A stretch of 64,000 nt of DNA from Mobula hypostoma (taxonomy: Eukaryota). Positions 2,521 to 50,400 of this stretch are shown here, one piece after another. Each line of letters opens with the position of its first letter. Positions within the stretch are counted from its first letter, which is position 1. A model generated the notes under the pieces. It did no database searches. It saw only the letters and a list, made by a program, of their open reading frames with translations, and was not told where the DNA came from. The stretch is from the NCBI RefSeq assembly GCF_963921235.1, contig NC_086107.1, positions 100,504,001 to 100,568,000 of the forward strand. The letters are read 5' to 3'. The position numbers and the translations under genes are program-made.

Positions 2521-3037
2521 CACTTGTGGAAGTTTCACAAACAAAGGGACGTACTGTAGCTACTACTTAAGAGCTACATAGACATTTCTTCTGTGAAATT
2601 CCTTTCCCTCAAGAATGGGCAAGGCCTTATTGTTAGATACATTTATAAGGGAGATAGTCAAATATCAGCTCAGCAGCACCTTGAATTCCTCAGGAGCCTA
2701 AAGACATTTGGCATGTCCCCTTTGGCCCTCGCCAGGTTTAATAGATGGACCAGGGAAAGCTTTCTATCCATTTGCATCACGGTTCGGTATGGCGGTTGTT
2801 CTGCCCATGACCACAAAAAAAACTGCAGAGAATTATGGACACATCTCAGCACTTCACCAGACTGTCCTTCATGGACTCTGTCACTGTTTTGGTAAACAAG
2901 TCAGACTAATCAGGGATCCCACCCACCCTAAACATTCCCCCCACCCCAATCTCACATTTGCTTCTTAGGGCCTTGCACCTTAAGGCATTTGTTTGACTTT
3001 GTTGGGTCTACGTTTTAAATGACTTGTTTGTAACTAT

Positions 3038-3896
3038 TGTTACGTACCCCGTAACTGGGTTGCCAAACCAGCAGAAATGGATCACTCAGTTGGAGTCTGG
3101 AGTACTAGAACTAAGAAAGTTTTATTAAAGAAACAAGCAACACAGTAATCGAAAGGATAATAAATGCAACAGTTCAGTGATGATAAACACATGTGCACAG
3201 AATTAAGATAACAGCATCAATCAAGCTCTATCGTTGTCTAGGGGTTAAATGACCAATTTCAAAATGACTCAAAGTTCAGTCCAGTTTGTAGTTCAGTTCG
3301 CAGTAATCGTTGCCATGGCGATGGACAAGGTGGGGGAAGAGAGACAGAGATAGAACAGGAACAACTGATCATTCAGAACAGCTTCACTCACAGACCAGCG
3401 GGATGGCTCACAAACAGCATTTGGGCGGGTCCTTGGTGATGTCACCTGAGGTCACCGACTGTGACCCCTCCTCCAGATGCGGTCGATCCTCTGCAGTGAA
3501 CCCGGCACCCAGGCAAGGGCGGACACACACCGGGTTCCCGCTGATCGTACCTTTCCACCCTGTGCGTTGTCCGGTACTTCTCATCACTCGTGAGAGGCGC
3601 ACCGCTTCCAGGGTCTCGTTACCTCGGGTGGCGTGTGTCTGTCTTAGCGAACCTGTCCCTTTTTATCCCCCTGCTGGGGTATCGCCTGTCCATCACTTCA
3701 AACAGTTCAGGGCTCAAAGGGGGGAGCCGCTCCAGACAGCTCTTCCTCCCACATCCCTTCATTACACATCTCCAGACGCTGCTCCATTGTTCCTTATCTC
3801 TCCTTCCCCTGAGGGCAGGTGGCAGACCAACTGCTGATGCCACTGATGCTAGCCCAGGCCAGCAAACATCTTAATTTTATGTGTATTCTCGTAACA
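3038..3896 (-). repeat. Gypsy 3' LTR (859 bp)
   Basis: tgttacg...cgtaaca inverted termini; matches 6976-7834 (offset 3938); minus-strand AATAAA at 3121-3126. Confidence 0.95.
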
Positions 3897-3910
3897 CTTC
3901 CCCCCTTTAA
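3897..3910 (-). promoter_or_regulatory. Polypurine tract of the Gypsy element
   Basis: Minus strand reads ttaaaggggggaag directly before the 3' LTR. Confidence 0.8.
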
Positions 3911-4068
3911 GGATTTTTACCGGGAGGTAAAAATTACAAACATGACTACATTATCTGATACATACACAATATACATCTTTAACAGTTATTTAGCTAATAC
4001 AGAGAATTTGAAGCTGTCAATACCTTGACAGACAGTCATCACATTTTCTGTTCCTTTTACACGTGTTA

Positions 4069-6876
4069 TTAATAATCCCTTAGACCAGGCTCCAACTCAG
4101 CAAACTTCATAGTGGCCAAAAACACTGATGAATTGCGACCAATGTAACCTCTCATTTGGTTTTGTCCCGGACCACAACAACAAGGGTCGTCCCATTCCGA
4201 CTCAATTTTCCCTCGCAAGGGCTTAGTAGGAGGGGGACGGGTATTGACCGCAGAGTTATTGCAAAACTTCCTGCAGTACCCCACCATCTCCAAAAGCCTT
4301 CTGAGGGCCCTCTTGTCTGTCGGGGTTGGGAGGTCAGCGATAGCCTGCACTGTAGCTTGCATCACTGCCAGCTGCCCCTGTGTCACCACAATTCCCAGGT
4401 AAGTGACATTCGCGTGGCCGAATTCATTTTTTCCAAGGTTCACTATCAAGCTGGCTTCAGACAGCCGTGTTAAATTGCCAATACACACCTCTGTGTTCAT
4501 CAGCCCTTTAGTCACTGAATTACTCAAAAAATATGGGTGTTGTTTGCTTGGCCGCCCTATTGTAACCGACATAACCCAACGTCCCAGTTCTTTGCATTTC
4601 CTCGGGACAATCAAACACATGGGTGCGAGTCGTTTAATTACTCCTTCGGGGATTAAGGGAGAGACCTTATCAGTAGACCTGGCCAAAACAATAGCCTTCT
4701 CCCATCTGACCGATCCCATCCTAATCTTTTCAAAATGGTTTTTTCCTCTTATCAAGGGGCCCCTAGCTTCATTGATTTCCACGCTAACACCGACTAGGTT
4801 TGTTAGCATATCAAAAGCCGGTGACCGTCTCAGTTCGCGTCGGTCATGATCAATAACATTTTTCCCCCTGGGCAGCCGGTAACTCTCTTTCATGATTCCA
4901 CCAACTGTTTCCTCCAGCACCGCAAAATGTCCACCGGGGGGTACCTCGTGGGCCATGTTAAAAACCTCATCCCCATAACTCTTTTGCACCACCCCCCACT
5001 CCTCATCTGCGGATGCTGTACTTGATTTCCCTTTCTTCCTTAGCACCTCCTTATCCGCACAATAGCTTGTCAAGGCTGTGTCAGAGAGAGCGGTCTCGGC
5101 CAAAACCATCAGCCCCTCGTCTCGCTCCTGCGTCTGCACAAATTCTTTCCTGGCTACTGCTACGTCCGTCCCAGCTCCCTCACTACCTCTTATCTCACTA
5201 CACCCTGTCTCATACAAGGTTGGCAGAAATGTTTCAGCCAAATTCACCATCGCGGGCGGGGCCTCCATGCTGGCAGGCTGACCCGTCAATCTCACGACTG
5301 GGAACACGATTCCTCCGGCGATGTCATTACCGAGCAAGACTTCCACGTCTTTCATCGGTAATTCGGACCTCACCCCAATCGTGACTAGTCCAGAGACCAG
5401 GTTGCTCTGTAAATGTATCTGGTGCAAAGGGACTGACTCTGTCCCTTCCCCAACACCTTTGACCTCTACCTCCCCAGTCTGGGTCTCTGAGCTAAACTCT
5501 AATACACTCTTCAGTATTAGTGACTGACACGCTCCCGTGTCTCTCCAGATCCGCACTGGAACTGGTTTTAACCTCTTTTTCACTGACACCAGTCCGGCCG
5601 AGATAAACCTCTCGCGCCCTTCCTGGACTTTTTCAGACCTGTCCTTCCCTAGCGGTTCGCTTAACAGCTCAATACAGCCATTCAAAATTTCCGCTTTTCC
5701 TTTCCCCGTCTCCTTCCTTGGGGCAAAGCACCTGGACGCAAAGTGTCCGACTTTCCCACAATTATAACAGACGACCCCAGGAGACTTCCTACCAGACTGC
5801 TCCCGGTCTACCTTATCCTTTTCACTAGTCCCCGGCTTACTTTCTGACTTTTCCGGTGGACTCTCCCCGCCGTCCTGACTACCCTTCTGGTAGCCTTTAC
5901 TCGGGGCAACCTTCATTTTATGCGTCAACGCATACTCATCCGCTAACTTAGCAGTTGCGGCTAACGTGGCTGCCTCTTTCTCATCGAGGTAGGGTCTCAT
6001 ACCCTCAGGGACACAACCTTTAAACTGCTCAATCAGAACCAGTTGCAGCAGTCTGTCATAATCCCCCTCTACCCCTTTCGAGGCGCACCAACGCTCACAA
6101 TATGTTTGCATCTCACGAGCAAACTCCAAATACGTGCGGTCCCACCGCTTCCTCGCATTCCGGAACCTCTGCCGGTATGCCTCCGGGACCAACTCATAAA
6201 TCCTGAGGATGGCCTCCTTCACCACCTCATACTTCTGGGCATCTTCCGCGGATAAGGCGGAGTAAGCTTGTTGGGCCTTCCCTTTCAGTACACTCTGAAG
6301 TAAGACAACCCACTTATCCCTCGGCCATTCCTGACTTATAGCTACTTTTTCGAAGTGGAGAAAGTACCGATCCACATCGGTATCGTCAAATGGGGGAACC
6401 AGCCTAACCTCCTGGGTCGCCCGGAACCCTCCACCTTGGTTCGGCACGAGCCCCTGCTCGGCCCTTATCTTTAACTTCTCCAGCTCAAATTCCCTTTCCC
6501 TCTGTTTCTCCTCTCTCTCCAACTGTCTGTCCCTCTCTCTCTCTTGCCTTTCTACCTCTCTCTCCTGCCTTTCTAACTGCTTCTCTTCGTGTTCTAACTG
6601 CCGTACCCGGAACTCGTGCTCGAGTCTCAGTTTTTCAAGCTGTACCTGTACCGCGTCTCCAGCAGGTTTTTCAATAGACACCTCCCCCAGCTCACCTTGG
6701 GGAAACACACCTTTAGATACATAGTGCTCTACAATAGCTCTGTGTATCTCCTCTCTCCTCATTGTCGACTTCACCTTAGCAAGATTCACCCGTTTTGCCA
6801 CAGCTATCAATTCCGATTTCCTGGCATCCTCTAATGCCTCCAAGGTCGGCGCCTTTATAAATTCCTCAACCTCCAT
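4069..6876 (-). CDS. Gypsy Gag (coiled coil, SCAN-like capsid, CCHC knuckle) - aspartic protease - vestigial integrase/RT polyprotein, 935 aa
   Basis: Uninterrupted ORF. SCAN-like YRQRFR...LIEQFKGCVP; CYNCGKVGHFASRC (5728-5769); RDTGACQSL (DTG at 5533-5541); integrase HH half AHEVPPGGH (4927-4953); RT pieces KQHPY and LTRLSEASLIVNLGKNEFG..TYLG..GYCRKF. No YxDD or DDE core is seen. Confidence 0.9.
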   Translation of the reverse strand: MEVEEFIKAPTLEALEDARKSELIAVAKRVNLAKVKSTMRREEIHRAIVEHYVSKGVFPQGELGEVSIEKPAGDAVQVQLEKLRLEHEFRVRQLEHEEKQLERQEREVERQERERDRQLEREEKQREREFELEKLKIRAEQGLVPNQGGGFRATQEVRLVPPFDDTDVDRYFLHFEKVAISQEWPRDKWVVLLQSVLKGKAQQAYSALSAEDAQKYEVVKEAILRIYELVPEAYRQRFRNARKRWDRTYLEFAREMQTYCERWCASKGVEGDYDRLLQLVLIEQFKGCVPEGMRPYLDEKEAATLAATAKLADEYALTHKMKVAPSKGYQKGSQDGGESPPEKSESKPGTSEKDKVDREQSGRKSPGVVCYNCGKVGHFASRCFAPRKETGKGKAEILNGCIELLSEPLGKDRSEKVQEGRERFISAGLVSVKKRLKPVPVRIWRDTGACQSLILKSVLEFSSETQTGEVEVKGVGEGTESVPLHQIHLQSNLVSGLVTIGVRSELPMKDVEVLLGNDIAGGIVFPVVRLTGQPASMEAPPAMVNLAETFLPTLYETGCSEIRGSEGAGTDVAVARKEFVQTQERDEGLMVLAETALSDTALTSYCADKEVLRKKGKSSTASADEEWGVVQKSYGDEVFNMAHEVPPGGHFAVLEETVGGIMKESYRLPRGKNVIDHDRRELRRSPAFDMLTNLVGVSVEINEARGPLIRGKNHFEKIRMGSVRWEKAIVLARSTDKVSPLIPEGVIKRLAPMCLIVPRKCKELGRWVMSVTIGRPSKQHPYFLSNSVTKGLMNTEVCIGNLTRLSEASLIVNLGKNEFGHANVTYLGIVVTQGQLAVMQATVQAIADLPTPTDKRALRRLLEMVGYCRKFCNNSAVNTRPPPTKPLRGKIESEWDDPCCCGPGQNQMRGYIGRNSSVFLATMKFAELEPGLRDY

Positions 6877-6952
6877 TTCTGCTGTTTGTCTTTTCTTTCT
6901 TTCGGGAATTTTAACCCAATCAATTTACTCCGTCCCAAATTTAGCGTTCAAA

Positions 6953-6971
6953 ATCGCGGACGAGAACCCCA
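6953..6971 (-). promoter_or_regulatory. Primer-binding site, imperfect tRNA-Pro-like
   Basis: Minus strand TGGGGTTCTCGTCCGCGAT, 4 nt inside the 5' LTR; resembles the tRNA-Pro PBS TGGGGGCTCGTCCGGGAT. Confidence 0.65.
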
Positions 6972-6975
6972 CTTA

Positions 6976-7834
6976 TGTTACGTACCCCGTAACTGGGTTG
7001 CCAAACCAGCAGAAATGGATCACTCAGTTGGAGTCTGGAGTACTAGAACTAAGAAAGTTTTATTAAAGAAACAAGCAACACAGTAATCGAAAGGATAATA
7101 AATGCAACAGTTCAGTGATGATAAACACATGTGCACAGAATTAAGATAACAGCATCAATCAAGCTCTATCGTTGTCTAGGGGTTAAATGACCAATTTCAA
7201 AATGACTCAAAGTTCAGTCCAGTTTGTAGTTCAGTTCGCAGTAATCGTTGCCATGGCGATGGACAAGGTGGGGGAAGAGAGACAGAGATAGAACAGGAAC
7301 AACTGATCATTCAGAACAGCTTCACTCACAGACCAGCGGGATGGCTCACAAACAGCATTTGGGCGGGTCCTTGGTGATGTCACCTGAGGTCACCGACTGT
7401 GACCCCTCCTCCAGATGCGGTCGATCCTCTGCAGTGAACCCGGCACCCAGGCAAGGGCGGACACACACCGGGTTCCCGCTGATCGTACCTTTCCACCCTG
7501 TGCGTTGTCCGGTACTTCTCATCACTCGTGAGAGGCGCACCGCTTCCAGGGTCTCGTTACCTCGGGTGGCGTGTGTCTGTCTTAGCGAACCTGTCCCTTT
7601 TTATCCCCCTGCTGGGGTATCGCCTGTCCATCACTTCAAACAGTTCAGGGCTCAAAGGGGGGAGCCGCTCCAGACAGCTCTTCCTCCCACATCCCTTCAT
7701 TACACATCTCCAGACGCTGCTCCATTGTTCCTTATCTCTCCTTCCCCTGAGGGCAGGTGGCAGACCAACTGCTGATGCCACTGATGCTAGCCCAGGCCAG
7801 CAAACATCTTAATTTTATGTGTATTCTCGTAACA
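6976..7834 (-). repeat. Gypsy 5' LTR (859 bp)
   Basis: Matches 3038-3896; adjacent to the PBS. Confidence 0.95.
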
Positions 7835-8416
7835 CTATTTTCTAGTTAAAGTTAAAGGTTGATAATTATGTTGCAGTATAACAAAGGTAAATCCGTTGTC
7901 TATGGTATATCACGGCATGCGATGACGTCACCTCCGGTTTCGCCGCGTCTTGGTTCAGAGAAGGTGTGAAGGTGGGTGCCATGCGTGCGGCATGATGGTG
8001 AAGAGCTCTGTTTCTATCCACAAAGAAACATTATAGAAGCAACGCCAAAGTTCACAAGAATGTATTTGAAGTAAAAATATTAACGCGGTTTCTGTTAAGG
8101 AAGTGGCGTTCCGGCTTTTCAATTTCAAATGCGGGGTGGGCTCGGGCCCGGCAGCGGTTTGACGGGACCCCCTTCGCCTGCTACTTGAGGTGGCTGGAGA
8201 CACTCGCTAAAAGAAGAGAGCGCGCGTGGTCTCCAGAATGAAACAGAAAGCTGTATATGTTTGTATTTTTTTATCAACAGTTTTCACCATACGATGTTAA
8301 TGTGGAAGAGTGAACAGTAAATGATTAACCTTACTACGACTCTGTCTTCATTGGCTCCGGTTTAACTTGGTGTTTAGTCAGAGTTTCAACACACTGCACG
8401 AGAACACTACAGTGAA

Positions 8417-11092
8417 ATGGCGAAATCATTAGACGCTTTGACAAGTGGCATGATGGCTTTGCGATCAAGCATCAAGTCGCTTGCACTCAGTGTCAAGAGC
8501 AGTAGGACGTCGACAAGTGTGGCTGCCCTCGCAAGAGCTAAAGCAGAAGCCGCCAAGGTGCGAGCGTCATACGCTAACCAAGAAGCAAAACTGAAAATGG
8601 AAGAAGCTGCTAGGGAAGCGGAAAACCAGAAGGAAAAGGTTGCCAGAGAAGCGGAAAACTAGTTGGAAAAGGCAAGGATAGATACAGAGTTAGAAGTGCT
8701 GACGCTACAACGAGAAGCTGATGTGGCCGCGGTGGAAGCACAAGTGTTGGAAAACGCTGAAGAAATGCACGTTCTAGAAAAAACAGGAAAATCTATGTCA
8801 GAAAGGGCCAAATTGGAACGCACCAGCAAATATGTCCAATCTCAAATTGACCGACAGATTCATTCTCTCTCTCCATACTTGCCTGTTGGCGTCCCATCTC
8901 ATGTGAAATCACAGGGAAGCTTCGTTGCATCGCGTCCACCTGGGGAAGACAACTCACAACTGCAACCTCGCCACAAACTCAATATGAAAGGGCTGACTAC
9001 GAATACTTCCTGACACCAAACTTAACAGATCCGGCGAGATCAGGGACAAAAGGCAGAAGTCAGAACATCAGATCCCATCATGAACGTACACGCTCAGTCA
9101 TATGTCCCCCAACATATTCCCCCAGCTAGCACGCCACCTGCAGCAGAACCCTTGGCACAGTATTTAGCATGACGAGACCTTGTCAATTCAGGACTGTACC
9201 AGTTTGATGATAAGGCTGAAAATTACTGTGCGTGGTACTCCTCATTCACCAGTGCCACCGGTGGAGTCCAGCTCTCAGCAACCCAGGAGTTGGACTTTAT
9301 GACTAAATGGCTGGGAAAGGAATCAAGTGAACAGGTGAAACGCATACACTCAGTGTATGTCAACAACCCCAAGCTGGCCTTACACAAAGCATGGGAGAGA
9401 CTTCGGGACTGCTATGCGGCCCCTGAAATTATTGAGAGGGTGCTATTTCAATGGCTGGACAATTTTCCTAGGGTGTCAGCCAAGGACTACACTAAATTAC
9501 GTGAACTCAGAGATTTACTCATGGAGATTCAAGGTGCTAAAGAAGACGCCTATTTAACTGGCCTGTCGTATCTGGATACCTCACGCGGTGTTGGACCAAT
9601 TGTGGCTGCAGGAAAGATGGGTGTCAATTGGCTCAGAGTACAAGGAAGAGAATGGTTGTTGATTCCCTCCCTTTGAGTATTTTAGTAGATTTGTGTGCAA
9701 GGAGGCGAAGAGGCAAAATGACCCTAGCTTCATGAATCAAGGCAGCACCACAACTCACACCAACCCAGTCAAACCCACTTCGAACAATTTTGTCATCAGT
9801 AACCCGTCTCAGTGCATAAAACTGAAGTCTCCGCAATCAACGATGACCCTAGCAAGAATTGTCCATTGCACAACAAACACCACCCCCTCAAAAAATGCAG
9901 AATGTTTCGAAACAAATCCTTTGATGAAAGAAAGGTCCTTCTCAAGGCAAAAAGAATATGTTTTAAGTGCTGTTCCTCTACCTCCCACCTCGCTAAAGAG
10001 TGTACATTCCCCGTAAAGTGCTCAGAACGTAACAGCACTAATCACGATGGAGCCATGCATCCCAGCCTGTCACCGCAAACTGCCAAGCTCCCACAAGAGG
10101 ATGGCGGGGAGAGAGAGCATTACTCTGATACAACAATTGTCAGCTCGAGCTGCACAAAAGTTTGCAGTCCAGGTCAGTCGAGCCATTCGTGCTCAAAGAT
10201 CTGCCTCACTAAGGTATACCCTAAGGAAGCCAAAGACAAGGCCATCAAAACCTATGTAATTCTGGACGACCAGAGCAACCGCTCACTAGTGAAACCAGAG
10301 TTCTTCAAGTTGTTCAGCCTAAAGGGTAATCCACTCCCATACTACCTCAGAACTTGCTCTGGTGTCGCAGAAACATATGGCAGGAAGGCAGAAGGCTTCC
10401 AGCTCGAGTCGCTGGATGGCAAAGTCGTCATCAGTCTCCCTGCACTTTTAGAGTGCAATGAGATCTTAAATAACCGATCCGAGATTCCGACACCAAGCGC
10501 AGTGCTACACCAGCCCCATTTCCACCACATCCCAGAACTGGATCCGGAAGCAGAAATACTCCTGCTACTTGGAAGAGACATTCTTAGGGTGCACAAAGTC
10601 AGGCAGCAGGTCTATGGACCACACAACGCCCCCTTCACCCAAAGTCTGGATCTGGGCTGGGTGGTGATAGGAGAGGTGTGCCCTGGCAACGTACACAAAC
10701 CGACAGTTAACACGCTCAAGACTAACGTACCAGAGAGAGGCCACCATTTAATTTCTCAGCCCTCCACAAGTGTTATGTGTATCAAGGAAGCACAACAAAG
10801 GCACGAGCATAGTAAAGTAACTGAGAAGACACTGGGACAGTCAGTCTTCGCTCAAACTAAGCACAATAATAAACTTGCTCCATCGGTGGAAGACGCCATC
10901 TTCTTAAAAATAACGGACACAAAGGTTTTTCAGAGATGAAGCAAACAACTGGGTCGTCCCACTACTATTCAGAGAACCATGCCAGCGCTTACCAAACAAC
11001 AAAGAGCAGGCAGTCAACCGGTTCACATCTTTACAACGAACCCTGAAAAGGAAACCTGAGACCAGTTACAGAGGTCGTTCTACTTCTACTTA
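8417..11092 (+). pseudogene. Disrupted BEL/Pao gag-protease-(RT start)-(integrase C-terminal tail)
   Basis: ORF pieces at 8417, 8663, 9290, 9693 and 9812. Coiled coil ARAKAEAAK; zinc knuckles CPLHNKHHPLKKC and CFKCCSSTSHLAKEC; BEL protease YVILDDQSNRS; RT start LPNNKEQAVNR..LKRKPE joined to terminal RPVTEVVLLL. Stops and frameshifts throughout. Confidence 0.85.
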
Positions 11093-11689
11093 AAGACTGA
11101 TCTAGAGACTAAAGTTCTATACCATGTTTATAGTGACCTTACAAATGTCAGGCGGGGAGTGAGTTGCCCTTAAGGCATTTGTTTGACTTTGTTGGGTCTA
11201 TGTTTTAAATGATTTGTTTGTAACTATTTTCTAGTTAAAGTTAAAGGTTGATAATTATGTTACAGTATAACAAAGGTAAATCCATTGTCTATGGTGTATC
11301 GCGGCATGCGATGACGTCACCTCCGGTTTCGCCGCGTCTAATGTAACTCTGGTTCGGGAAGGTGTGAAGGCGGGTGTCATGCGTGCGGCATGATCGTGAA
11401 GAGCTCCGTTTCCACCCACAAAGAAACATTATAGAAGCAACGCCGTAAGTTCACAAGAATGCATTTGAAGTAAAAATATTAACGCCGTTTTTGTTAAGGA
11501 AGCGGCGGTTGGGGCGGCGTGCGTGTCGGCTTTTCAATTTCAAGTTTGGGTTGAGTTCGAGCCCGGCGGCGGTTTGAAGCAACCTCCTCATTCCGTACTC
11601 GGGTCGGTCGGCCGGAGACACTCGCTGAAAGAAGAGGGAGGGAGGGAGGGAGAGGGAGGAGGAGAGAGAGAGAGAGAGGGAGAGAGAGA

Positions 11690-15407: not shown

Positions 15408-17290
15408 CATAGTCATAGTCATACTTTATTGATCCTGGGGGAAATTGGATTTTGATGCAGTTGCACCATAAATAATAAATAGTAATAGAACCATAAATAG
15501 TTAAATAGTAATAGGTAAATTACGCCAGTAAATTATGAAATAAGTCCAGGACCAGCCTATCGGCTCAGGGTGTCTGACCCTCCAAGGGAGGAGTTGTAAA
15601 ATTTGATGGCCATAGGCAGGAATGACTTCCTATGACGCTCTGTGTTGCATCTCGGTGGAATGAGTCTCTGGCTGAATGTACTCCTGTGCCCACCCAGTAC
15701 ATAATGTAGTGGATGGGAGACATTGACCAAGATGGCATGCAACTTAGACAGCATCCTCTTTTCAAACACCACCGTGAGAGAGTCCAGTTCCATCCCCACA
15801 ACATCATGGGCCTTACAAATGAGTTTGTTGATTCTGTTGGTGTCTGCTACCCTCAGCCTGCTGCCCCAGCACACAACAGCAAACATGATAGCACTGGCCA
15901 CCACAGACTCGTAGAACATCCTCAGCATTGTCTGGCAGATGTTAAAGGACTTCAGTCTCCTCAGGAAATAGAGATGGCTCTGACCTTTCTTGTAGACAGC
16001 CTCAGTGTTCTTTGACCAGTCCAGTTTATTGTCAATTCGTATCTCTAGGTATTTGTAATCCTCCACCATGTCCACACTGACCCCCCTGGATGGAAACAGG
16101 GGTCACCGGTACCTTAGCTGTCCTCAGGTCTACCACCAGCTCCTCAGTCTTTTTCACATTAAGCTGCAGATAATTCTGCTCACACCATGTGACAAAGTTT
16201 CCTACCGTAGCCCTGTACTCAACCTCATCTCCCTTGCTGATGCATCCAACTATGGCAGAATCATCCGAAAACTTCTGAAGATGACAAGACTCTGTGCAGT
16301 AGTTGAAGTCTGAGGTGTAAATGGTGAAGAGAAAGGGAGACAAGACAGTCCCCTGTGGAGCCCCGGTGCTGCTGGTCACTCTGTTGGACACACAGTGTTG
16401 CAAGCACACGTACTGTGGTCTGCCAGTCAGGTAATCAAGAATCCATGATACCAGGGGAGCATCCACCTGCATCGCTGTCAGCTTCTCCCCCAGCAGAGCA
16501 GGGCAGATGGTGTTGAACGCACTGGAGAAGTCAAAAAACGTGACCCTCACAGTGCTCGCTGGCTTGTCCAGGTGGGCGTAAACACAGTTCAGCAGGTAGA
16601 CGATGGCATCCTCAACTCCTAGTCGGGGCTGGTAGGTGAATTGGAGGAGATCTAAGTGTGGCCTGACCATAGGCCAGAGCAGCTCCAGAACAAGTCTCTC
16701 CAGGGTCTTCATGATGTGGGAGGTCAATGCCACCGGTCTGTAGTCATTGAGGCCGCTGGGGCGTGGCGTCTTCGGCACAGGGACGAGGCAGGACGTCTTC
16801 CACAGCACAGGAACCCTCCGGAGCCTCAGGCTCATGTTGAATACATGGCGAAGTACTCCACATAGCTGAGGGGCACAGGCTTTGAGCACCCTGGTACTGA
16901 CACCATCCGGTCCTGCAGCCTTGCTTGGGTTGAGATGTTTCAGCTGTCTTCTCACCTGTTCAGCTGTGAAGCTCACCGTGGTGGTTTTGTGTGGGGAAGG
17001 GGTATAGTCATGAGAGCAGGGTGGGGGGCTGTGAGGAGGGGTAGGAGGGGAGAGTGGAATATGTGTTGGTTGGGGGCCGACAACAGATGGCTCATGTGGG
17101 GGATGGGCAGGGGCCACAATGTCAAATCTGTTAAAGAACAGGTTAAGTTTGTTGGCCCTATCCATACTGCCTTCAGCTCCTCTGTTGCTGGTTTGCCAAA
17201 ACCCAGTGATGGCCCTCATCCCCCTCCAGACCTCTCTCATGTTGTTCCGCTGGAGTTTCCACTCAAGCTTCTTCCTGTACCTGTCTTCAA
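15408..17290 (-). mobile_element. 5'-truncated Rex1/Babar-type LINE with RT domain and one frameshift
   Basis: ORFs 16032-17339 (KAAGPDG, NDYRPVALTS, FFDFSSAFNTI, GAPQGTVLSP, KFSDD) and 15557-16075; (TATGAC)n tail at 15408; 6-C run near 16081 versus 5 G in the plus-strand copy. Confidence 0.9.
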
Positions 17291-18379
17291 TGAGACTACC
17301 ATTGTTAAGGATCTCTTGCATAAGTACAGGCAAGCCCATTTTTAGTTATGCTCTTATCACTAACATCATCCCATTATATTATCAATGATCCCACTGATCA
17401 TTTGTTATTTCTGTCACTGATTTCTTGAATTAGTATTACTAGCCCCATTGTTAAACAGCCTTTTGATTTAGACTGCATACCTAGATCATTATTAAATATT
17501 TCAGCTTACTGAGGTTAACAATGTTAACAATTGCTTAAATAGGCAGAGTTAGGCCATTGTAACTGATCTCTTTTATTTCCAAAGGCAGTACATTATCAAT
17601 GGTCCCTTCAGTTATTGAAACCATCGCAATGATAACGTCCATCTCAGTAACTCCCACTAATCAATAAAGGAAGCAAGCTGAATGCATATCAAAAACATCT
17701 ACAAGTCGAACTTGGAAATGAATATAAAATTCAGGAAACTCCCACAAATGCTAGAGGAACCCAGCAGATCAGGCAGTGTCTATGGAGGGAAATGAACTGT
17801 CCACATTTCGAACTGAGATCCTTCATCGGGACTCAGTTCCGGAAACTTTTAGCAGGCTGAGGAGAAGCTAAATAACCTTCAGGGCTTCACACCTGATGAA
17901 AAATGTCGTACTTGAACTGTGTTCCTCTCTACACAGAAGCTGTCTGACCTGTTAGAGTATCAAAGAAAATGAGTTGAAGTTGACTAATTCTGAACAGACC
18001 AATGGCCATAATAATAGTTTTAATTTCTTTTCTGTTCTCCTCTATTAGTTTATGTTGTATTATCTTAAAGTAAAATATTTGTTTCACACTCTAATCATAA
18101 CATGTTTGAAGATTCTTTATTGATCATCTGTGGCACTGTTTGTTATTTTTTCTATTCCATTAAGTACATTCTCATTCACTTCTAAATCATTTATTTTATT
18201 TACTTTCATTTACAATTAATCACTCTGATTTGTAACTCTCCATTTTTTTTCGATTACTACTTTTAAATACAAAATATTTTCAGCTTAATTTCCAAATGGA
18301 ATTCAGCAGTCTCAATTTCCTTATTGGGCTAGAAACTGATCTATAAAATGGAAACAACATTTCTCAGTCTCGATTCAAT

Positions 18380-23260: not shown

Positions 23261-23350
23261 TGTACCTCATAGCCCTGCTTCCTGTATACTGTTGAAAGTT
23301 AATCACCATAGAGAACGACAATTGGAGTGTCTTAACAACAGAGCAGAAAA

Positions 23351-23552
23351 ATGAAGCGAGTGCTTAGTTTCTTGCTGTGGGCCATAATCGCCATCCGAGG
23401 ACATTTTTCCAAGAATCCCTATTCAAAGTGCACGGATAAATTGTTTACGATTAATGTGGTTCTATTGAATGATTCTTCCTCTCCTTGGACCTTGAATGAT
23501 GTAATTCCATGTATAAAGCAGGGAATTGAATCTATAAATAAGGACCTACAAG
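23351..23552 (+). CDS. GUCY2C: Guanylyl cyclase C (guanylin/heat-stable enterotoxin receptor) coding exon 1
   Basis: MKRVLSFLLWAIIAIRG signal peptide ...CTDKLFTINVVLL...KQGIESINKDLQ; donor AG|gtaaga; 202 nt, phase 1. Confidence 0.85.
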
Positions 23553-24719
23553 GTAAGATCCATGTGTTGATTTGTTTCTACTGTCTGTGTTACGGAGAGG
23601 GTACAGAGCCACTGGGGAAGGTGCAGAAAGAAGATTTATATGATAAGAGTACTAAGAGGTGGAATAGAGAGCAGAACTTCTCTGCCCTCTTCTCATTGTT
23701 ACCATCAAGAAGGAAGTACCGGAGCCTGAAGGCACACACACTCTACAATTCAGGAACAGCTTCTTCCCCTCTACTATCCTATTTCTGAATGGACATTGAA
23801 CCCACGAGCACTACCTCACTACTTTTTTATTTTTGTTTTTGCACTTCTTATTTAATTTAACTATTATATATATGTTGTAGTTCACAGCTTTTTAAAAATA
23901 TTATCATGTATTGCATTGTGCTGCTAAATTAACAAATTTCACAACATATGCCAGTGATATTAAACCTGATTCTGATTCTGACTTGATAAAAACCCTTAAA
24001 GTTATCGAAATGTTTGATATGGTACATGTGGATATGTTTTCATTTATGTGAGAAATTTGAACTAGCTGTCAAGTATATAAACTCATTGCTATTAAATACA
24101 AATTCAGGGTGGAAAACGCTATTGAGAATTAAGAAATTCTTAAGTATACGATGATTAATCCAAACACATGAATGCATTTACACAGGAGACTGCAAGGTAA
24201 TGAGGGAGAAAGAAAAATTGATCTGATGAGATGATAAATGAGTTTTCCAGTGTACCTTAAAGTGCAGGCTTTGGAAAGTAAGACTGGGTGTATATTGTTT
24301 CATTAAGTCCATCTGTAGTTAATAGTCAATGCTAATCATTCTTACAGATAAATCCTTGCAGATTGTCATTTTGATGAAGCTTTGGTGAAGTTTTGGGTAA
24401 GAGCTAAACAAGGTACCTTGAATGGGGACTTCCTTTGTAATTGTAACTGTTTCCAACAGCAGTCAATTAAATTCATCCGTTTGAGTGGATAAAGAGAGAG
24501 GAAGAGAAAACACAGGTTTTTAACTGTGGAGTGTGGCAGTTTGAGAGTGGGGGCTTCAGTTAGCAGGGTCTGTGGCATCTTCTCAACATTGACATTTGGT
24601 TAGACAGTGTGGCATTGATGTCAGTCAGGTCAGTATTTGGTAATCATTTTCATATTTTACAGTTCATATAAAGTGTGAAAGCAGATTCGATTGTGTTTTA
24701 AGGGGACATTTTAAAATCA

Positions 24720-36129: not shown

Positions 36130-37520
36130 GAACTGAATTATTTCTTACATCCTTCACATACATGCGTAAAAGTCTTTATGTTATGTCTCCATCTAAATGT
36201 GCAATCATAGTAATTTATAATAAATAGAACAGTGAATGTACTATAGAGTACACTCAAATCAGCGTGAGTTCATCAGTCTGATGGCCTAGCGGAGGAAGCT
36301 GTCCCAGAGCCTGTTGGTCCTGGCTTTTATACTGTGCTACTGCTTCCCGGATGGTAGCAGCTGGAATAGATTGTGGCTGGGATGACTTGGGTCCCCAGTG
36401 ATCCTTCGGGCCCTTTTTATACACCTGTCACTGTAAATGTCCTGAACATGGGAAGTTCACAACTACAGATGCGCCGGGCTGTCTGCACCACTCTCTGCAG
36501 AGACCTACGATGAAGGAAGGTACAGTTCCCATACCAGGCAGTGATGCAACCGGTCAGGATGCTCTCAATCGTGCCCCTGTAGAAGTTCTTAGGATTAGGG
36601 GGCCCATACCAAACTTCCTCAACCACCTGAGGTGAAAGAGGCACTGTTGTACCTTTTTCACCACACAACTGGTGTGTACAGACCATGTGAGATCATCGGT
36701 GATGTGTATGCCGAGGAACTTGAAGCTGTTTACCCTCTCAACCCCAGATCCATCGATGTCAATAGGGGTTAGCTTGTCTCTATTCCTCCTGTAATCCACA
36801 ACCAGCTCCTTTGTTTTTGCGACATTGAGAGAGAGGTTGTTTTCTTGACACCACTGTGTCAGAGAGATGACTTCTTCCTTGTAGGGCACCTCTCTATAGT
36901 TTGAGATAAGGCCAATCAATGTAGTGTCATTGGCAAATTTAATTAGCAGATTAGAGCTGTGGGTGGCGATACAGCCATGGGTATACAGGGAGTAAAGGAG
37001 GGGACTCAGTACTCAGCCCTGAGGGGCTCCTGTATTGAGAGTCAGAGGGTTGGAGGTGAGGGAGCCCACTCTTACAACCTGCTGGCGATCTGACAGGAAG
37101 TCCAGGATCCAGCTGCACAAGGCAGGGCCAGGGCCAGGGCCGAGGTCTCTGAGCTTCTTGTTGAACCTCGATGGAACTATGGTGTTGAATGCTGAACTGT
37201 CGTCCAAGAACAGCATCCTCACACAAGAATCCTTCTTCTCCAGATGTGTAAGGACGGTATGTAGAGCAGTGGCTAATGTGTCGTCTGTCGATCGGTTATG
37301 TTGGTAGGCGGATTGTAGGAGATACAGTTTGGGTGGTAGCAAGCTGCAGATGTAATCCTTGACCAGCCTCTCAAAGCATTTTCTTATTATTGAGGTGAGT
37401 CCGACAGGACGCCAGTCGTTCAGGTATGTTACCTTGGTCTTTTTTGGTACAGGGACAATGGTGGATAATTTGAAGCAGGAGGGCACTCTACACTGGGAGA
37501 AGGAAAGATTAAAAATATCA
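36130..37520 (-). mobile_element. 5'-truncated Rex1/Babar-type LINE (RT fragments)
   Basis: ORFs 37013-37552 (NDWRPVGLTS, DSSAFNTI, TGAPQG), 36554-36919 (KTKELVVDY, FKFLG) and 36417-36686. Confidence 0.8.
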
Positions 37521-37917
37521 GCTATTAGCCCATCAACAAATCCCCTGACCACTTAGATGAGATATGGTTAAGGAATATTATTAATAACTTCAAGAACAAC
37601 TACAAAACTTGCAAATACAAATGCATATTTAACCTTTTAAGACCTCCACAGGAGAGCTTGTGAACTAAATTTGACACAAATTCCGTAAAAAGGTGCTGAG
37701 GCTTGTAACCCAAATTTAATCAAAGAGATAGATTTTAAAGAGCCTCTTCAATAAAAGAGAAGTGAAAAGACTGACTGATACAATCATAAGTTTCCAGACC
37801 AGAGGTCCATGGCAGCAAAGTGGAATGTTCAAGAGTTCAGAATTGGTTAAAACAGGAAAAAGAGACAAAAATGTTAAATAAATAGTAATATTATCATAAA
37901 CTTACTTTTTTTGACAG

Positions 37918-41390: not shown

Positions 41391-42394
41391 GTCGTGAAAT
41401 CAAAACGGGAGTACACTATCTGAATCCTTGAACCTGTTAGCTGGTAAAATGTGCTTGGAAAAAAGGAATAGAGAACTTTTGGTAAATTTAGATTAAGGAA
41501 AGGCAAGGAGGAGACTGGAAAGGAGCATAAACACAAAGATGGATCAATTTTTATGCAATGTATCTTATTTTTTATTGATGAAAGGTGATAGCCTAGCAAT
41601 GTTCCAGTCTATGGCTCCGATGCTGATTACAATCAACAATTGGAGTAAAGAAATACTATAATTCATAAACATTTGAGTAATAAGTTCTGACTCTAAAAGA
41701 GCAAAAGCATAATGCTGAGCCTGTGGCTTAGTTGTTGGCTCTCCAGTCAGAGGAAGCAGATTCTCAAAATCTTCTCTGTCAATCCTTCACAGAATTTTGC
41801 ATATCTCAATGAGACTGTTCTAAACTCTGTGGCATATACAGAATGTCACTCAGTTGCAATCACTGCCTGAAAACTCCAAAATGTGTCATTTGTCGCTCCA
41901 GTATTTCTCAGTTGAGTATCCACCATTATATTAGCTGAGATTCTACTTCCACTACTCTTATTGTCACTCTCTTTGGCATATAGGTCCAAAGATCCCTGAA
42001 GGTGACAACACAGATAGATAGGGTGGTGAAGAGGGCAACTGGGTGCTTACTTTCATTATCCGGGACATAGTAGAGGGAGCTCCTGGTACTATATAAAGTA
42101 TCGGAATACAATGTACATTTATGTTTGCCACAAGTGATTGGACTGGAGAGAATGTGGCGGAAATTGGAATTGGTTCATTATTGTCACTTGTAATTATGGA
42201 TGGTAAAAACCTTGTCTTGTGTACTGTTTGGACAAATCAACTCATTGTAGAGTGCTTTGAAGTTGGACAATAACGGAATGCAGAACAAAGTGGAATACAG
42301 ATTCATTTATTTCTCACACGTACATCGAGACATCACTTATGTTAACAGCCAACACAACCTAAGGATGAGCTGGGGCAGCCCGCGAGTGTCGCTT

Positions 42395-42712
42395 CACATT
42401 CCTGCACCAATACAGCATGCCCACACATTCCCGCACCAACACAGAATGCCCACACATTCCCGCACCAACACAGCATGCCCACACATTCCTGCACCAACAC
42501 AGAATGCCCACAATGCATGCCTACACATTCCTGCACCAACACAGAATGCCCACAATGCATGCCCACACATTCCCGCACCAACACAGCATGCCCACACATT
42601 CCTGCACCAACACAGCATGCCCACACATTCCTGCACCAACACAGAATGCCCACAATGCATGCACACACATTCCTGCACCAACACAGAATGCCCACAATTC
42701 CTGCGCCAACGC
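42395..42712. repeat. Minisatellite, ~29-bp unit CACATTCC(T/C)GCACCAACACAG(C/A)ATGCCCA, about 10 copies with longer variants
   Basis: Tandem repetition visible directly; produces the repetitive ORFs in all frames. Confidence 0.9.
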
Positions 42713-45694
42713 AGCTGAACAACAAAAGCAACAGCAACCACAATAACACAACAGCAAAACAAGCTCCTTTCCCACCCTAAGTCACACATACAGACAGGCC
42801 TCCAACCCCAGGACAGGTATCTCCAGGTTTCTGACCACCAGTCCTTGGCTCTGGACTCTCAGACTCACAGACATTGGTCCTCTGACCACCAGTCCCTGGT
42901 GCAGATTCACAGACTTCCAACCTCTGGATATGCCAACCCATGGGACTTTGGCCTCAAACTCTGGTCTTTCTTGCAGTCAAGCAGAGCATTTGCCATACCA
43001 AGCCAGGGTGCACCCAGATAAGATGGCTTTCTATGATGCATTGATTAAAAATTGATTATGGTTGAAGGATCATGCCCAATTTCTTTTGCCTCCTGAGAAA
43101 GTAAAGGTGTTGGTGAGTTTTCGTGTCCCTGGTACCAACATGACTGGACCAGGATAGGCTACATGTGATGTTCACTTCTAGGTTTTTAAAGCTTTCAACC
43201 CTCTCGATCTCAGCACCGTTGATGTAGATAGGGGTTCGTGCACTGCCCCCTTCCTAAAGTCAGTGACCAGGTCTTTTGTTTTGCTGACATTGAGCTAAAA
43301 GTTGTCTTGACACCATGTTACTAAGCTCTCTACCTCTTTCCTGTACTTGGACTCATGCTTATTTGCAACACAGCCCACTGCAACGGCATCATCCACAAAC
43401 TAGTAGATGGGGTTAGGGCGGAATCTGCCCACGCAATCATGCCTGTACGGGGGCAGTAGAGAAGGGGGTAGAGGATGCAATCTTGCAGAGCATCAGTGCA
43501 GAGAATAATTGTGATAGAGGCATTGCTGCCTAAACTTACTGATTACAGTCTGTTGGTCAGGAAGTCAAGGATCTAGTGGTAGAGGGAGAAGCTGACTCCT
43601 TAGTCTCGTGTTTTCTCTGAATTACAGTACAGAAGATGGAGCTGTAATCAATAAACAAAAGTCTAATGTGGGATGCTCCACGTTAATGTGTCCAGATGCT
43701 CTAGAGATGAGTGTACCACAATGGAGATGGCTTCTGCTGTAGACCTGTTTTGGGGATAGACAAACTGCAGTGGGTCAAGGTTGGCTGGGAGGATGGAGCA
43801 TTGTGTTCAGACTCTCCAGGATGTTCATAATGTTGGAATGTTTCTGTTGTGAGCAGAGACGGGACCTGATAGTGGTAAACTAAATCATGAAACACACACA
43901 GGGAGTATGTTGATAGTAAGAGGCATCTCTCCATTGCAGAGGTGTTAAAGGCTATAGGTTTAAGGTGAGGAGTAAGAAGTTTCTCAGAGATTTAAGGAAG
44001 GGTTTCTTTCACTTCCTCCAAGAGGTTCACAACCTTGTTGTAGGGTGTGGAGACTTGTGTGCCTCAATATACTATGTTGGCCAGAGTCAAGGCCTTGTAC
44101 TTTGGCTCTTGGTAGGATCACCCATCCCAGACAGGTCAAAGGATGGAGGCCAGACTAAGAGTGGTCCACTGGTCCTCCAGGTTTGGTGGTTCAGCTCAGG
44201 GCCAACAACCCTGACTGATCAAAAAAATATTGTTGTGGAAACAGCCATGAGGATTTCTTCTATGTGGCCAAGGACAGATGGAGATGGAGGACTTTCATTG
44301 CTGCCCTAAACGCCAGTGGCGTAACAGACAATTAATAAAAAATAATAATTTTTTTCACTTAGGCGATAATTGAAATTTAGGAGAAGCTGTTCAAGAAAGT
44401 GGGAGATCTGAGACTCTCTCAATATTTAAGAAGCATCTGGACAAACACTTGAATTAGCATTGAATTGTAGACTGCAGATCATGTGCTGGTAAATGGAAAT
44501 ACTGGAGGCAGGTTCTTGATGGTCACTAAAGCCATGGTGGATCAAAGGGTCTATTTCTATGCTCTATGACAATATATGATTTTATAATACTCAGCATGCC
44601 TCCTGCTCTACCTAATCTTTGCCAATAATGATTCGAGATGACCTGTACTTCATCTCCAGATGATTGTTCACAAAACTGAAGTAGTCATGTTGACGTCCTG
44701 TCGAAAGACTGGTCAAAGCCCACTAACTTCAATTGTAAAACATCTTACAAAGTTTTTCATGTTTGTAAGTATTTGCCGCATAAGTTCAGCTTTCATTTTA
44801 ATTTTTGTGGGTTTTTTTCAGGCTCTAAGCTTATTGAGTGTGTCTGGATTGTTTGGGTTAGTTCAGCTAGTAGATTTATTTACTCAGTTTATTTAGGTAG
44901 TTATGTTGTTTGGATTGACTTGGGCAATAAAACTTTACAACTTTGATGACTTTTGACTCGGGTGTGTTGCGCCTCACCCAGCACGTTGTGTAATCTTTAA
45001 CCAAATGTTAATGCTCATCTCCGTAATTGTCAGAGTCTGAGGTAATGACACCTTATTGTACTCCTTGCTGTTTCTCATGCATGGACTCGTACTGGGCCAG
45101 CAGTAACTACTCTAACAATGGAGACAGGGTTAGAATAATACATGCCAGCCATCACAAATTGCTATTATTACATATTACCACGAATTACCTATTATTACAG
45201 ATGTGATAACATTTTAAAAAGTATAACATATCTTGGCAGAGTCCGCCTGGCATTATGGAAAGGGAATCATCTTTAACACATTAGCAGTCTTTGAGAATGT
45301 AATTAGCAGGATAGTGAGTATAGTTTATTTAGACTTTATTTAGACCTTTGATTGCTAACCATCTAAAATTTATTGCACAAGATAATAGTTCATGGTGTTG
45401 AGATTGATATATTAGCTGGGACTGAGTATTGGCTAACATGCAGAAAACAAAGAGGTAAACAGATAATTTTTCAATTGGTAATATCTAACTTGTGTTTCAG
45501 GGATCAATAGGTGGTACATTTAATGTCAGAGAAATATATTATAGTTACTTAGAATCTATAGTAATTACTCAGATAAAGGAATTTTAACTTTGTTGCTGAA
45601 ACAAAGGCAGATGGGAAAAAAGTTGCAAGGGGGATACGGTGTATCAGGAAAGAAATGTATAGACAGATATAATGAGGAGAAATGCAAGGGTATC

Positions 45695-47482: not shown

Positions 47483-50400
47483 AGGCTTGATGACCTGCAG
47501 CTTATTAGGGAAAGTGAACAGGAGATAGGTAGGAGCTACAAGGGGTTAGTCACCCCGAGGCTGCAGGAATTAGGCAAGTGGGTGACGGTCAGGGAAGAGA
47601 TGGGAAGAGCTCAGATAGTAGAGAGCACCCCTGTGGATATCCCCCTCAGTAACCGTTACCTCATTTGGATGCTGTTAAGGGGGGTGACCTGACAGAGGAT
47701 GACCATGGCGATTGGGTCTCTGGCACTGAGACTGGTTCAGTGGTGCAGAAGGGAGAGAAGAAGATGAGGAATGTGGTAGTCACAGGAGATGCCATAGTGA
47801 GGGGAACAGACAGGAGGTTCTGATAGAGATACCTGCATGATTGTTGCCTCCCAGGTGCCAGGGTATGGGATGTCTTGGGGTGTAGAGTATTCTGAAGGGA
47901 GAGGGTGAACAGACAGAAGTCTTGATACACATTGGTAGCAATGACATTGGTAGAAAAAGGGAGGAGGGCCTGAAGAGAGAATTCAGGGAGTTGGGTAGGA
48001 AGCTGAAAAGCAGGACCTCCAGGGTAGTAATCTCAGGATTGCTGCCTTATGCCACGTGCTAACGAGTGTAAGAATAGCATGATCAGGCATATCAATGCGT
48101 GGCTGAGAGACTAGTATAGGAGGCAGGGCTTCAGGTTCCTGGATCATTGGGGTCTCTTCTGGGGGAGGTACGACCTGTACAAAAAGGACAGGTTACACCT
48201 GAACCCAAAGGGGTCCAATATCCTGATAGGCAGGTTTAATAGAGCTGTTCAGGAGGGCTTAAACTAATTTGGCAGGGAGAGGGAAACCAGAGTGATAGGG
48301 CTGTGGAAGGGGAAAACAGAAATAAATCAAAGATAGTGTTCAACACAGATGATAGAAAGGACAGGCAGGAGATGAGGCACAATCACAGCTAGTGGGATGA
48401 GCTACAGGCAATAGAGGCATGGTGCAGTTAAAACAGAAAGCAACAAATACTGGACTGAAAGTGCTATATCTGAATGCATGCAGCATAAGAAATAAATTGG
48501 ACAATCTTGAAATTCAGCATCAGATTGGCAAGTATGAGGTTGTGGCCATCTCTGAAACTTGGCTAAAGGATGGTTGCCATTGGGAGCTGAACATCCAAGG
48601 ATATACGGTGTATCAGAAAGATAGGTTAGTAGGCAGAGGGGGTGGTGTGGCCCTGTGTATAATAAATAATATTAAATCATTAGAAAGGGATAACATAGGA
48701 TCGGAAGGTGTAAAGTCTGTATGGGTTGAGTTAAGAAATGGCAAGGGTAAAAGGACCCTAATGGCAGTTGTATACAGGCCTCCAAACAGTAGCTGGGATG
48801 TGGATTACAAATTACAGCAGGAGATAGAAAAGGCATGTCAGAAGGGCAATGTCATGATAATCGTTGGGGATTTTAACACGAAAGTGTATTGGGAAAACCA
48901 CGCCAGTACTGGACCTCAGGAGAAGGAATTTATAGAATGTCTAAGGGATGACGTTTTAGAACAGCTTGTTGTTGAGCCCAGTAGGGGATCGGCTGTACTG
49001 GATTGGGTGTTGTGTAAAGATCTGGAGGTGATAAGAGAGCTTAAGGTTAAGGAACCCTTAGGGAACAGTGATCACAATATGATCGAGTTCACTTTGAAAA
49101 TTGAGAAGAAGAAACTAAATTCAGTGTTTCAGTGGAATAAAGGAAATTACAATGGCATGAGAGGGGATCTGGCCAAGGTTGACTGGGAAGAGACACTAGA
49201 AGGAAGGACAGCAGACCAGCAATGGCTGGAGTTTCTGCGAAAAATGAGGGAAGTGCAAGACAGATATTCCAAATAAGAAGAAATTTTTGAATGATAGGAC
49301 ACTACCATGGCTGACAAGAAAAGTCAGTGCTAAAGTAAAAGCAAAAGAGAGGGCATACAAGGAAGCCAAAGCTAGTCGGAAGATAGAGGATTGGGGAGCT
49401 TATAAAATCTTGCAGAAGGAAACTAAGAAGGTCATTAGGAAGGAAAAGATGAATTATGAAAGGAAGCTGGCGACTAATATCGAATGAGATACTAAAAGCT
49501 TTTTTAAGTATATAAAGGGTAAAAGAGAGTTGAGGGTAGATATAGGACCAATAGAAAATGATGCTGGAGATATTGTAATAAGGGGTGCAGAGATGGCAAA
49601 GGAACTGAATGCATATTTTGCATTAGTCTTCACATCTGCAGTATACCGCACATTCAAGAGTGTCAGGGAAGTGAAGTATGTGCAGTGAAAATTATGACTG
49701 AGAAGATGCTCAGGAAGCTTAATGGTCTGAGGGTGGATAAATCTCCTGGACCTGATGGAATACACCCTTGGATTCTGAAGGAAGTAGTTGGGGAGATTGT
49801 GGAGGCATTAACAATGCTCTTTCAAGAATCGACAGGTTCTGGCATTGTACTAGATGACTGAAAAATTGCAAAAGTTACTCCTCTATTTAAGAAGGGTGAG
49901 AGGAAGCAGAAAGGAAACTATAGACCTGTTAGCCTGACACTAGTGGTTGGGAAGTTGTTGGAATCGATTGTTAGGGATGAGATTACAGAGTACCTGGAGG
50001 CACATGACAAGATGGGCCAAAGCCAGCATGGTTTCCTGAAAGGAAAATCCTGCCTGACTGACCTACTGCAATTCTTTGTGGAAATTACAAGTAGGGTAGA
50101 CAAAGGAGATGCAGTAGATGTGGTGTACTTGGATTTTCAGGCCTTTGATAAGGGGCCACACATTAGGCTGCTTAGCAAGATAAGGTTCCATGGAATTACA
50201 GGGAAGTTACTAGCATGGGTGGGAATTGGCTGATCGGCAGAAAACAGAGAGTGGGAATAAAGGGATCCTATTCTGGCTGGCTGCTGGTTACCAGTGGAGT
50301 TCCACAGGGGTTGGTGTTGGGACCACTGCTTTTTTACGATGTATGTCAATGGTTTGGACTATGGGGTGAATGGATTTGTAGCTAAGTTTGCCGATGATAC

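Follow-up and report, generated by a model that had tools for sequence, protein, structure and literature searches.

The window analysed here is a stretch of 64,000 nucleotides (nt) of the Mobula hypostoma genome (NCBI RefSeq assembly GCF_963921235.1, contig NC_086107.1, positions 100,504,001 to 100,568,000 of the forward strand). An element with long terminal repeats (LTRs) occupies positions 3038-7834 of its minus strand, and the interior of this element is filled by a single open reading frame (ORF) of 935 codons (4069-6876). By its capsid and domain order the element belongs to the Gmr1-like Ty3/gypsy group without being an autonomous member, and it represents a long-lived, still mobile, semi-autonomous family of mobulid rays. 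Its reverse transcriptase (RT), RNase H and integrase (IN) are catalytically dead. The explanation that we cautiously favor, and rate slightly above even, is that a semi-autonomous Gag-protease element is under selection for read-through of its tail of Pol relics, in the interest of messenger RNA (mRNA) survival or of co-translational packaging, and not for the tail protein.

Probable selection on the reading frame and drift of the tail protein

The tail contains no stop in frame, against 30 and 31 stops in the other two frames. Its 11 well-supported length changes all kept the frame, which would happen by chance with a probability of 6e-6. Three of them are large deletions relative to P0013, a reference that carries all domains in one ORF, and eight are smaller changes relative to P0012, P0136, P0134 and P0005; two one-residue insertions and a two-residue gap, possibly alignment noise or compensated frameshifts, were excluded. 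The copy in the window has a single frameshift, at the very 3' end of the ORF, and counting it as a 12th event gives a probability of 5e-5. Substitutions point in the same direction: 146 of 350 tail residues differ from P0136, an older stage of the family, most of the changes falling on the branch of the window (31 polarised sites against 8), and the 3.9-7.6 stops expected from the substitutions since P0136 are entirely missing (P from 0.02 to 0.0005). No frameshifting ORF indel reaching 5% was found among the 12 of 13 listed from the DNA runs X1 and X9, versus 161 and 250 substitution sites, and the same read data list 1-nt indels at two positions of the 3' untranslated stretch (170 nt).

Gag and protease are under purifying selection, and the amino acids of the tail change at near-neutral rates and spectra. 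When identities are scaled to the mutual resemblance of 52 full-length Gmr1-like references (normal identity being 1), the values are 1.01 for the capsid and 0.96 for the protease; the zinc knuckle, too, is conserved to the same degree as in these references. For the seven translated relic pieces the values are 0.68, 0.51, 0.52, 0.57, 0.85 (the RT thumb), 0.58 and 0.42, so that five of them (0.42-0.58) have decayed about as far as an untranslated RNase H relic, which keeps 0.51. Inherited variants, defined as those present in at least two relatives, differ between the two regions in their mean BLOSUM score (p = 0.022): the 66 variants among 478 Gag-protease sites average +0.24 and the 93 variants among 381 tail sites average -0.26, against a neutral expectation of -0.30 to -0.46 (-0.35 to -0.46 for the tail); private variants are neutral in both regions and provide an internal control. 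The 37 ORF variants among the 40 of 316 listed from reads, a small subset chosen by the tool, comprise 17 non-synonymous, 8 synonymous and 0 stop variants in the tail (about 17:7:1 under neutrality) and 6 non-synonymous and 6 synonymous ones in Gag-protease.

The original prediction, made from the sequence of the window, had seen Gag and protease as intact and had supposed that frame-preserving deletions reflect selection on the relic tail, for instance for packaging, helper recruitment or mRNA stability. The constraint on Gag-protease and a frame kept open beyond chance are both borne out by the figures given above. Selection on the tail as a protein is not, since its inherited substitutions fit neutrality and most of its pieces have decayed like the untranslated relic. 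Among the options offered, mRNA stability or translation-coupled packaging fits best, and helper recruitment finds a weak hint in the RT thumb.

In the scenario that we favor, the RNA of the element would be packaged by its own Gag, and RT and IN would be supplied by an autonomous Gmr1-like relative. Selection would maintain the passage of ribosomes to near the old stop rather than the tail protein, which the protease would probably cut off and which would then be discarded. An early stop would extend the 3' untranslated region (UTR) from ~1 kb to as much as ~2.1 kb, lengths that assume the sole poly(A)-type signal at ~3121-3126, the larger figure corresponding to a stop after the protease. 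A copy with such a longer 3' UTR would be a worse mRNA, exposed to decay of the nonsense-mediated (NMD) type, or a worse template for co-translational packaging, and would found fewer new copies.

A comparable arrangement exists in Hemitrygon akajei, where the gene models P0015 and P0019 encode a Gag-protease that runs on, in frame, into a second and decayed copy of itself. This second copy resembles the window's Gag-protease (E = 4e-15 and 9e-9) and is open in both models, which are 64% identical to each other in this part. A junk tail of different content fits a read-through requirement that is blind to content. In P0021, from the same species, only the start of the second copy is present. 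The three models may belong to a parallel family that is also non-autonomous but has a filler tail of another kind.

Anatomy of the Gag-protease-Pol-relic ORF

Gag contains an E/R/Q-rich coiled-coil repeat (6455-6655) whose length varies from copy to copy by tens of residues, a SCAN-like capsid C-terminal domain (amino acids (aa) 231-320; 5917-6186; Pfam PF02023, E = 1.1e-12, 48 bits against a cut-off of 27) and a CCHC zinc knuckle (aa 369-383; 5728-5772; PF00098, E = 4.6e-6), all, like the ORF itself, on the minus strand. The aspartic protease (aa ~421-535; 5272-5616) has its DTG motif at 5533-5541 and keeps 28 of 33 conserved reference columns, without a Pfam match in its region. SCAN and zf-CCHC are the only Pfam families above cut-off on the ORF, where no RT, integrase or RNase H was detected. 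With a profile built from 57 full-length relatives, matches are obtained at residues 2-542, 565-664 and 802-899.

The remains of Pol follow the protease in frame. The protease-integrase linker and the integrase N-terminal piece (aa 544-679; 4839-5247), recognized with the profile and by comparison with P0013, retain two histidines of the integrase and have lost its two cysteines. A deletion of ~288 residues relative to P0013 then removes the whole integrase catalytic core. The next segment, made up of the integrase C-terminal end, the IN-RT linker and the RT start (aa 680-782; 4531-4838), was assigned through P0136: residues 676-785 of the window protein are too decayed to score alone (independent E-value (iE) 0.15), and the P0136 equivalent of aa 680-782 matches the profile with an iE of 3e-14 and has the same placement in 51 of 57 references. 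Residues 681-744, which the automatic alignment had spread across the missing integrase core, were reassigned on these grounds. The RT palm piece with the substituted YxDD position (aa 783-803; 4468-4530) lies between deletions of 128 residues before it and 18 residues after it. The RT primer-grip/thumb piece (aa 804-899; 4180-4467) is the least decayed relic (profile iE 6e-28), and a search of solved structures gave an RT match at residues 802-879 (best E = 3e-4).

After an 87-residue deletion comes a translated RNase H piece (aa 900-924; 4105-4179) with a substituted catalytic position. Between them, the three large deletions have taken out the integrase core, most of RT and the beginning of RNase H. 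A frameshift after aa 924 makes the last 11 ORF codons unrelated, as they are read in another frame; the RNase H C-terminal relic (~27 codons; 4023-4103), also out of frame, lies mostly past the ORF stop and contains one stop. This relic was matched by tblastn with P0013 (E = 0.12); the translated piece, with the same E-value, is weak by sequence alone, and its collinear position supports the assignment. A complete RT or IN hidden in another frame was rejected, the profile having no match in the five other frames. Structure prediction was uninformative: AlphaFold2 with a 10-row family alignment reached a mean predicted local distance difference test score (pLDDT) of 31.5 and did not resolve even the capsid. 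A search of the ESM Atlas with the tail returned only RT/RNase H look-alikes scoring below 0.9, which can be taken as a lead only.

Most of the anatomy first proposed for this ORF stands: its 935 codons, the integrity of Gag and protease (SCAN and CCHC by Pfam, 28 of 33 protease columns kept), the lack of complete RT and IN cores in Pfam, the succession of integrase N-terminus, RT start, RT thumb and RNase H, which is collinear with full-length relatives, and the non-autonomous status, as the active sites of RT, IN and RNase H are substituted or deleted. The idea that all catalytic cores are missing needs to be narrowed. Deletions did remove the integrase triad, the first aspartate of RT and the first two catalytic residues of RNase H, but the ORF retains, in substituted form, the YxDD position (798-801) and that of the last RNase H catalytic residue (~912-914). 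Similarly, the RNase H relic noticed beyond the stop is real, but another RNase H piece is translated. The tail also includes the integrase C-terminal end and the IN-RT linker, beyond the pieces first named, and measures ~390 aa from the protease end instead of ~350.

The family and its older stages

The closest proteins come from M. hypostoma and are 80-96% identical (9 of 83 hits). We aligned 29 Mobula relatives, excluding P0117, and 11 of them (10 from M. hypostoma, one from M. birostris) share the C-terminus of the window protein. Older stages exist in both Mobula species (P0132-P0135, with tail identities of 75-82%). A further one, P0136, has a tail identity of 52% and still scores as Integrase_H2C2 and RVT_1; it already has the integrase and RT deletions, apparently the third as well, and lacks several of the small ones. 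These stages show a stepwise erosion of the tail. The split of the two sequenced mobulids is dated to ~20 million years ago (10.64898/2026.10.27.761883).

Public reads contain the family as well. In one DNA run 19,206 contigs fall on the 3.1-kb interior (summed contig depth does not measure copy number), and the public runs of three organisms cover the interior bins completely or nearly so. For organism C there are contigs that span the RT and RNase H junctions and, according to distances, the integrase junction too; one such contig carries a 1-nt deletion. A metagenome scan gave 22 pattern matches, none of them a relative. The family is multicopy with common deletion junctions, so that the caveat raised at the outset, that this might be a single copy, does not apply.

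A single decayed copy was accordingly rejected, and so was a domesticated host gene, given the young dispersed copies with identical LTRs. The RefSeq models P0002, P0010, P0111 and P0116, named MACC1, phosphatidylserine decarboxylase, UBE2G2 and PPM1Lb, consist wholly or mostly of the element ORF; they may be misannotations or LTR-driven chimeric models.

Weighing the hypotheses

Several observations weigh against selection for read-through. An early stop would lengthen the 3' UTR to a modest extent only. Early ends are found in 18 of the 29 Mobula relatives (14 inside the tail and four before it), as ageing copies would have, and the relatives are RefSeq gene models, a source biased toward long ORFs. 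A frameshift near aa 833 is common to P0004 and P0005 and another near aa 712 to P0006 and P0137, which suggests that truncated variants may sometimes amplify, or else that errors recurred or arose in assembly; neither reaches 5% in run X1, and the M. hypostoma assembly is Nanopore-based (10.64898/2026.10.27.761883). The listed read variants are few, and the Hemitrygon models are proteins only, which takes some strength from that parallel.

The expected autonomous partner was not found among the sequences searched: 20 longer proteins among 7984 candidates are at best 36-40% identical; of 1058 matches in a profile library, two fall below 1e-30 and both belong to this family; and 10 of the best RT-thumb matches, two of them named (shrimp and sea cucumber), include no ray. 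Among ray proteins, P0011 and P0012 contain portions of an integrase, but both are incomplete. Finally, the tail has not decayed evenly: the thumb piece keeps 0.85 of normal identity versus 0.42-0.68 elsewhere, and 10 of its 50 informative sites have changed, compared with 36 of 88 elsewhere (post-hoc p = 0.015).

These last figures lend themselves to another explanation, which we consider rather doubtful: that the RT primer-grip/thumb piece (here aa 804-879) is kept as a handle, for nucleic-acid binding or dimerisation, by which the particle would take up the helper RT or the primer-template, and that the remaining tail is an in-frame spacer needed to reach it. The thumb also keeps 24 of 33 conserved columns, versus 22 of 52 elsewhere (p = 0.008), and differs less than the rest from all five older stages (0.11-0.32 vs 0.17-0.45; p < 0.05 in two of the five). 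A handle would, moreover, account for a frame that is open to ~aa 880 and yet shifted at 924. Nevertheless, the segment was chosen after looking, and the scan-corrected p is 0.31-0.84. Its substitutions are not clearly conservative (mean BLOSUM -0.55 to +0.12), the frameshift common to P0004 and P0005 halves it, and recombination with helper RNA or an RNA element could equally slow its decay.

It seems less likely still that the tail DNA is kept for RNA signals (packaging, dimerisation or spacing), the open frame resulting largely from ascertainment and from a bottleneck through few master copies. The neutral drift of the amino acids, the shared frameshifts, the ORF-biased relatives and the choice of this element for its ORF all agree with that idea. 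Yet it cannot make 11 successive changes keep the frame or erase the expected stops, and the read data, which are free of annotation bias, lack a common ORF frameshift while having 1-nt indels in the 3' untranslated stretch. Wheat provides a further objection, as non-autonomous Angela elements amplify there with many stops and frameshifts (PMC9744471), so that an open frame in the ray element is not the default outcome of decay.

The weakest of the explanations considered is that the fusion protein acts on the helper or the host; as a dominant-negative capsid partner, for instance, it might bias mixed particles toward this family or keep the autonomous element in check. Restriction factors derived from Gag are known, and the purifying selection on Gag-protease and an abundant family without a close full-length partner among the candidates would suit such a role; but young dispersed copies with identical LTRs point to selfish spread instead of a fixed host gene, and the open tail would be left unexplained.

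Selection for read-through is therefore the explanation that we retain, with the reservations listed above. If it is correct, a mobile element would allow selection on translation to be told apart from selection on protein, and natural open and truncated copies could be used to test how NMD or co-translational packaging contributes to the success of retrotransposons. The family offers a natural experiment in vertebrates, in which a coding stretch drifts near-neutrally as a protein but keeps its frame, with fossil stages in two species. It also illustrates that a long stop-free ORF is not a proof of protein function, and copies of this element are misnamed as host genes in RefSeq. A broader and improbable extension is that rays repeatedly evolved Gmr1-like parasites whose Gag-protease needs a long translated filler, the Mobula thumb serving in addition as a handle for helper enzymes. 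This would amount to a distinct parasitic strategy that combines required read-through with a minimal RT decoy, the Hemitrygon filler being a decayed Gag-protease duplicate.

Insertion site and other features of the window

The two 859-bp LTRs (the 3' LTR at 3038-3896, which holds the poly(A)-type hexamer, and the 5' LTR at 6976-7834) have no mismatch, TG...CA termini and 7-bp inverted ends. They are bordered by the target-site duplication (TSD) CTAT at 3034-3037 and 7835-7838, as first described. A polypurine tract (PPT; 3897-3908) adjoins the 3' LTR, and a primer-binding site (PBS; 6951-6971) lies 4 nt inside the 5' LTR; both are on the minus strand. The PBS may be tRNA-Pro-like, with an imperfect match. 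The element interrupts one arm of an older direct repeat; the two parts of this arm (2973-3037 and 7835-8218) match the other arm (11164-11636) at 83-95%. The second arm has CTAT only once, near 11224, and thus represents the empty site. The insertion is recent and new copies of the family are still being made.

The older direct repeat flanks broken gag-like ORFs (8663-10939), which are presumably BEL/Pao-like given their motifs; Pfam gives only DUF1759 (E = 0.097). The database protein P0103, which joins BEL/Pao-type Pfam families with SCAN and Integrase_H2C2, may be chimeric and derive from elements nested as in the window. At 50551-51184 a degenerate relative of the LTR (74-79%) shares its terminal motif and has no coding sequence close to it; this is probably an old solo LTR of the same family.

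Elsewhere, an ORF at 23336-23788 starts with a signal-peptide-like stretch and has no Pfam match; we assume a resemblance to the first exon of a receptor guanylyl cyclase. Broken fragments of long interspersed nuclear elements (1522-2121, 15557-17345, 36554-37552, 48401-51907 and 57305-57712) are presumably Rex1/L2/CR1-like according to their motifs. A tandem repeat at 42251-42858 yields overlapping low-complexity ORFs on both strands.

Comparison with known elements

Gmr1-like elements are defined by the order protease (PR)-IN-RT and a SCAN-like capsid (bioRxiv 10.1101/2025.03.03.638093; PMC4592553), and SCAN marks Gmr elements (PMC4131045). The ray element has this capsid (by Pfam), the order PR-IN-RT-RNase H (by comparison with P0013 and the 57-sequence profile), one long ORF as in P0013, TG...CA LTRs, a short TSD, a PBS and a PPT, which upholds its initial identification as Gmr1-like; its closest full-length matches all carry SCAN, IN and RT. 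It differs from autonomous members, whose ORF has ~1500-1690 aa, by its 935 aa and by the lack of intact active sites in the integrase (DDE), RT and RNase H. A published description of this family was not found, in a search that left out repeat catalogues and most subscription journals, so that it may already be catalogued.

Helper-dependent Gag-protease retrotransposons are already known, mostly from plants, and the ray family is a vertebrate variant of them. Semi-autonomous Gag/protease elements have been reported in wheat (RLG_Sabrina_SA and WHAM; PMC9744471), as have TR-GAG and sugar-beet families, with partly decayed POL domains in 15 of 115 families of the beet survey (PMC13570524). The likeness lies in an intact Gag-protease, an RT and IN that do not work, high copy numbers and a long dependence on helpers; accordingly, the ray family combines a constrained Gag-protease with dead RT and IN and is multicopy in its deleted form. 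It falls outside TR-GAG in the strict sense because remnants of IN, RT and RNase H are present in frame. In-frame Pol debris is not described for these plant elements in the available parts of PMC9744471 and PMC13570524, whereas the ray element has ~390 residues from four Pol regions in one ORF and a visible erosion series.

Retroviral RNAs with a long 3' UTR face NMD (PMC2925335). Rous sarcoma virus faces the same problem, an LTR transcript whose stop is far upstream of its poly(A) site; the virus shields the early stop by an RNA element, whereas the ray element would avoid early stops. The closest analogue is mouse intracisternal A-particle (IAP) 1-delta-1, an in-frame deletion fusion whose translation product is reported to help in cis (PMC6466679, PMC7411935). 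In both, an in-frame internal deletion has produced a gag-pol fusion ORF, and the very successful IAP form likewise needs proteins in trans. It belongs, however, to a retroviral lineage and arose by one 1.9-kb deletion that also cut Gag, whereas in the ray element Gag-protease is whole, at least 11 length changes have accumulated and the relic has drifted far.

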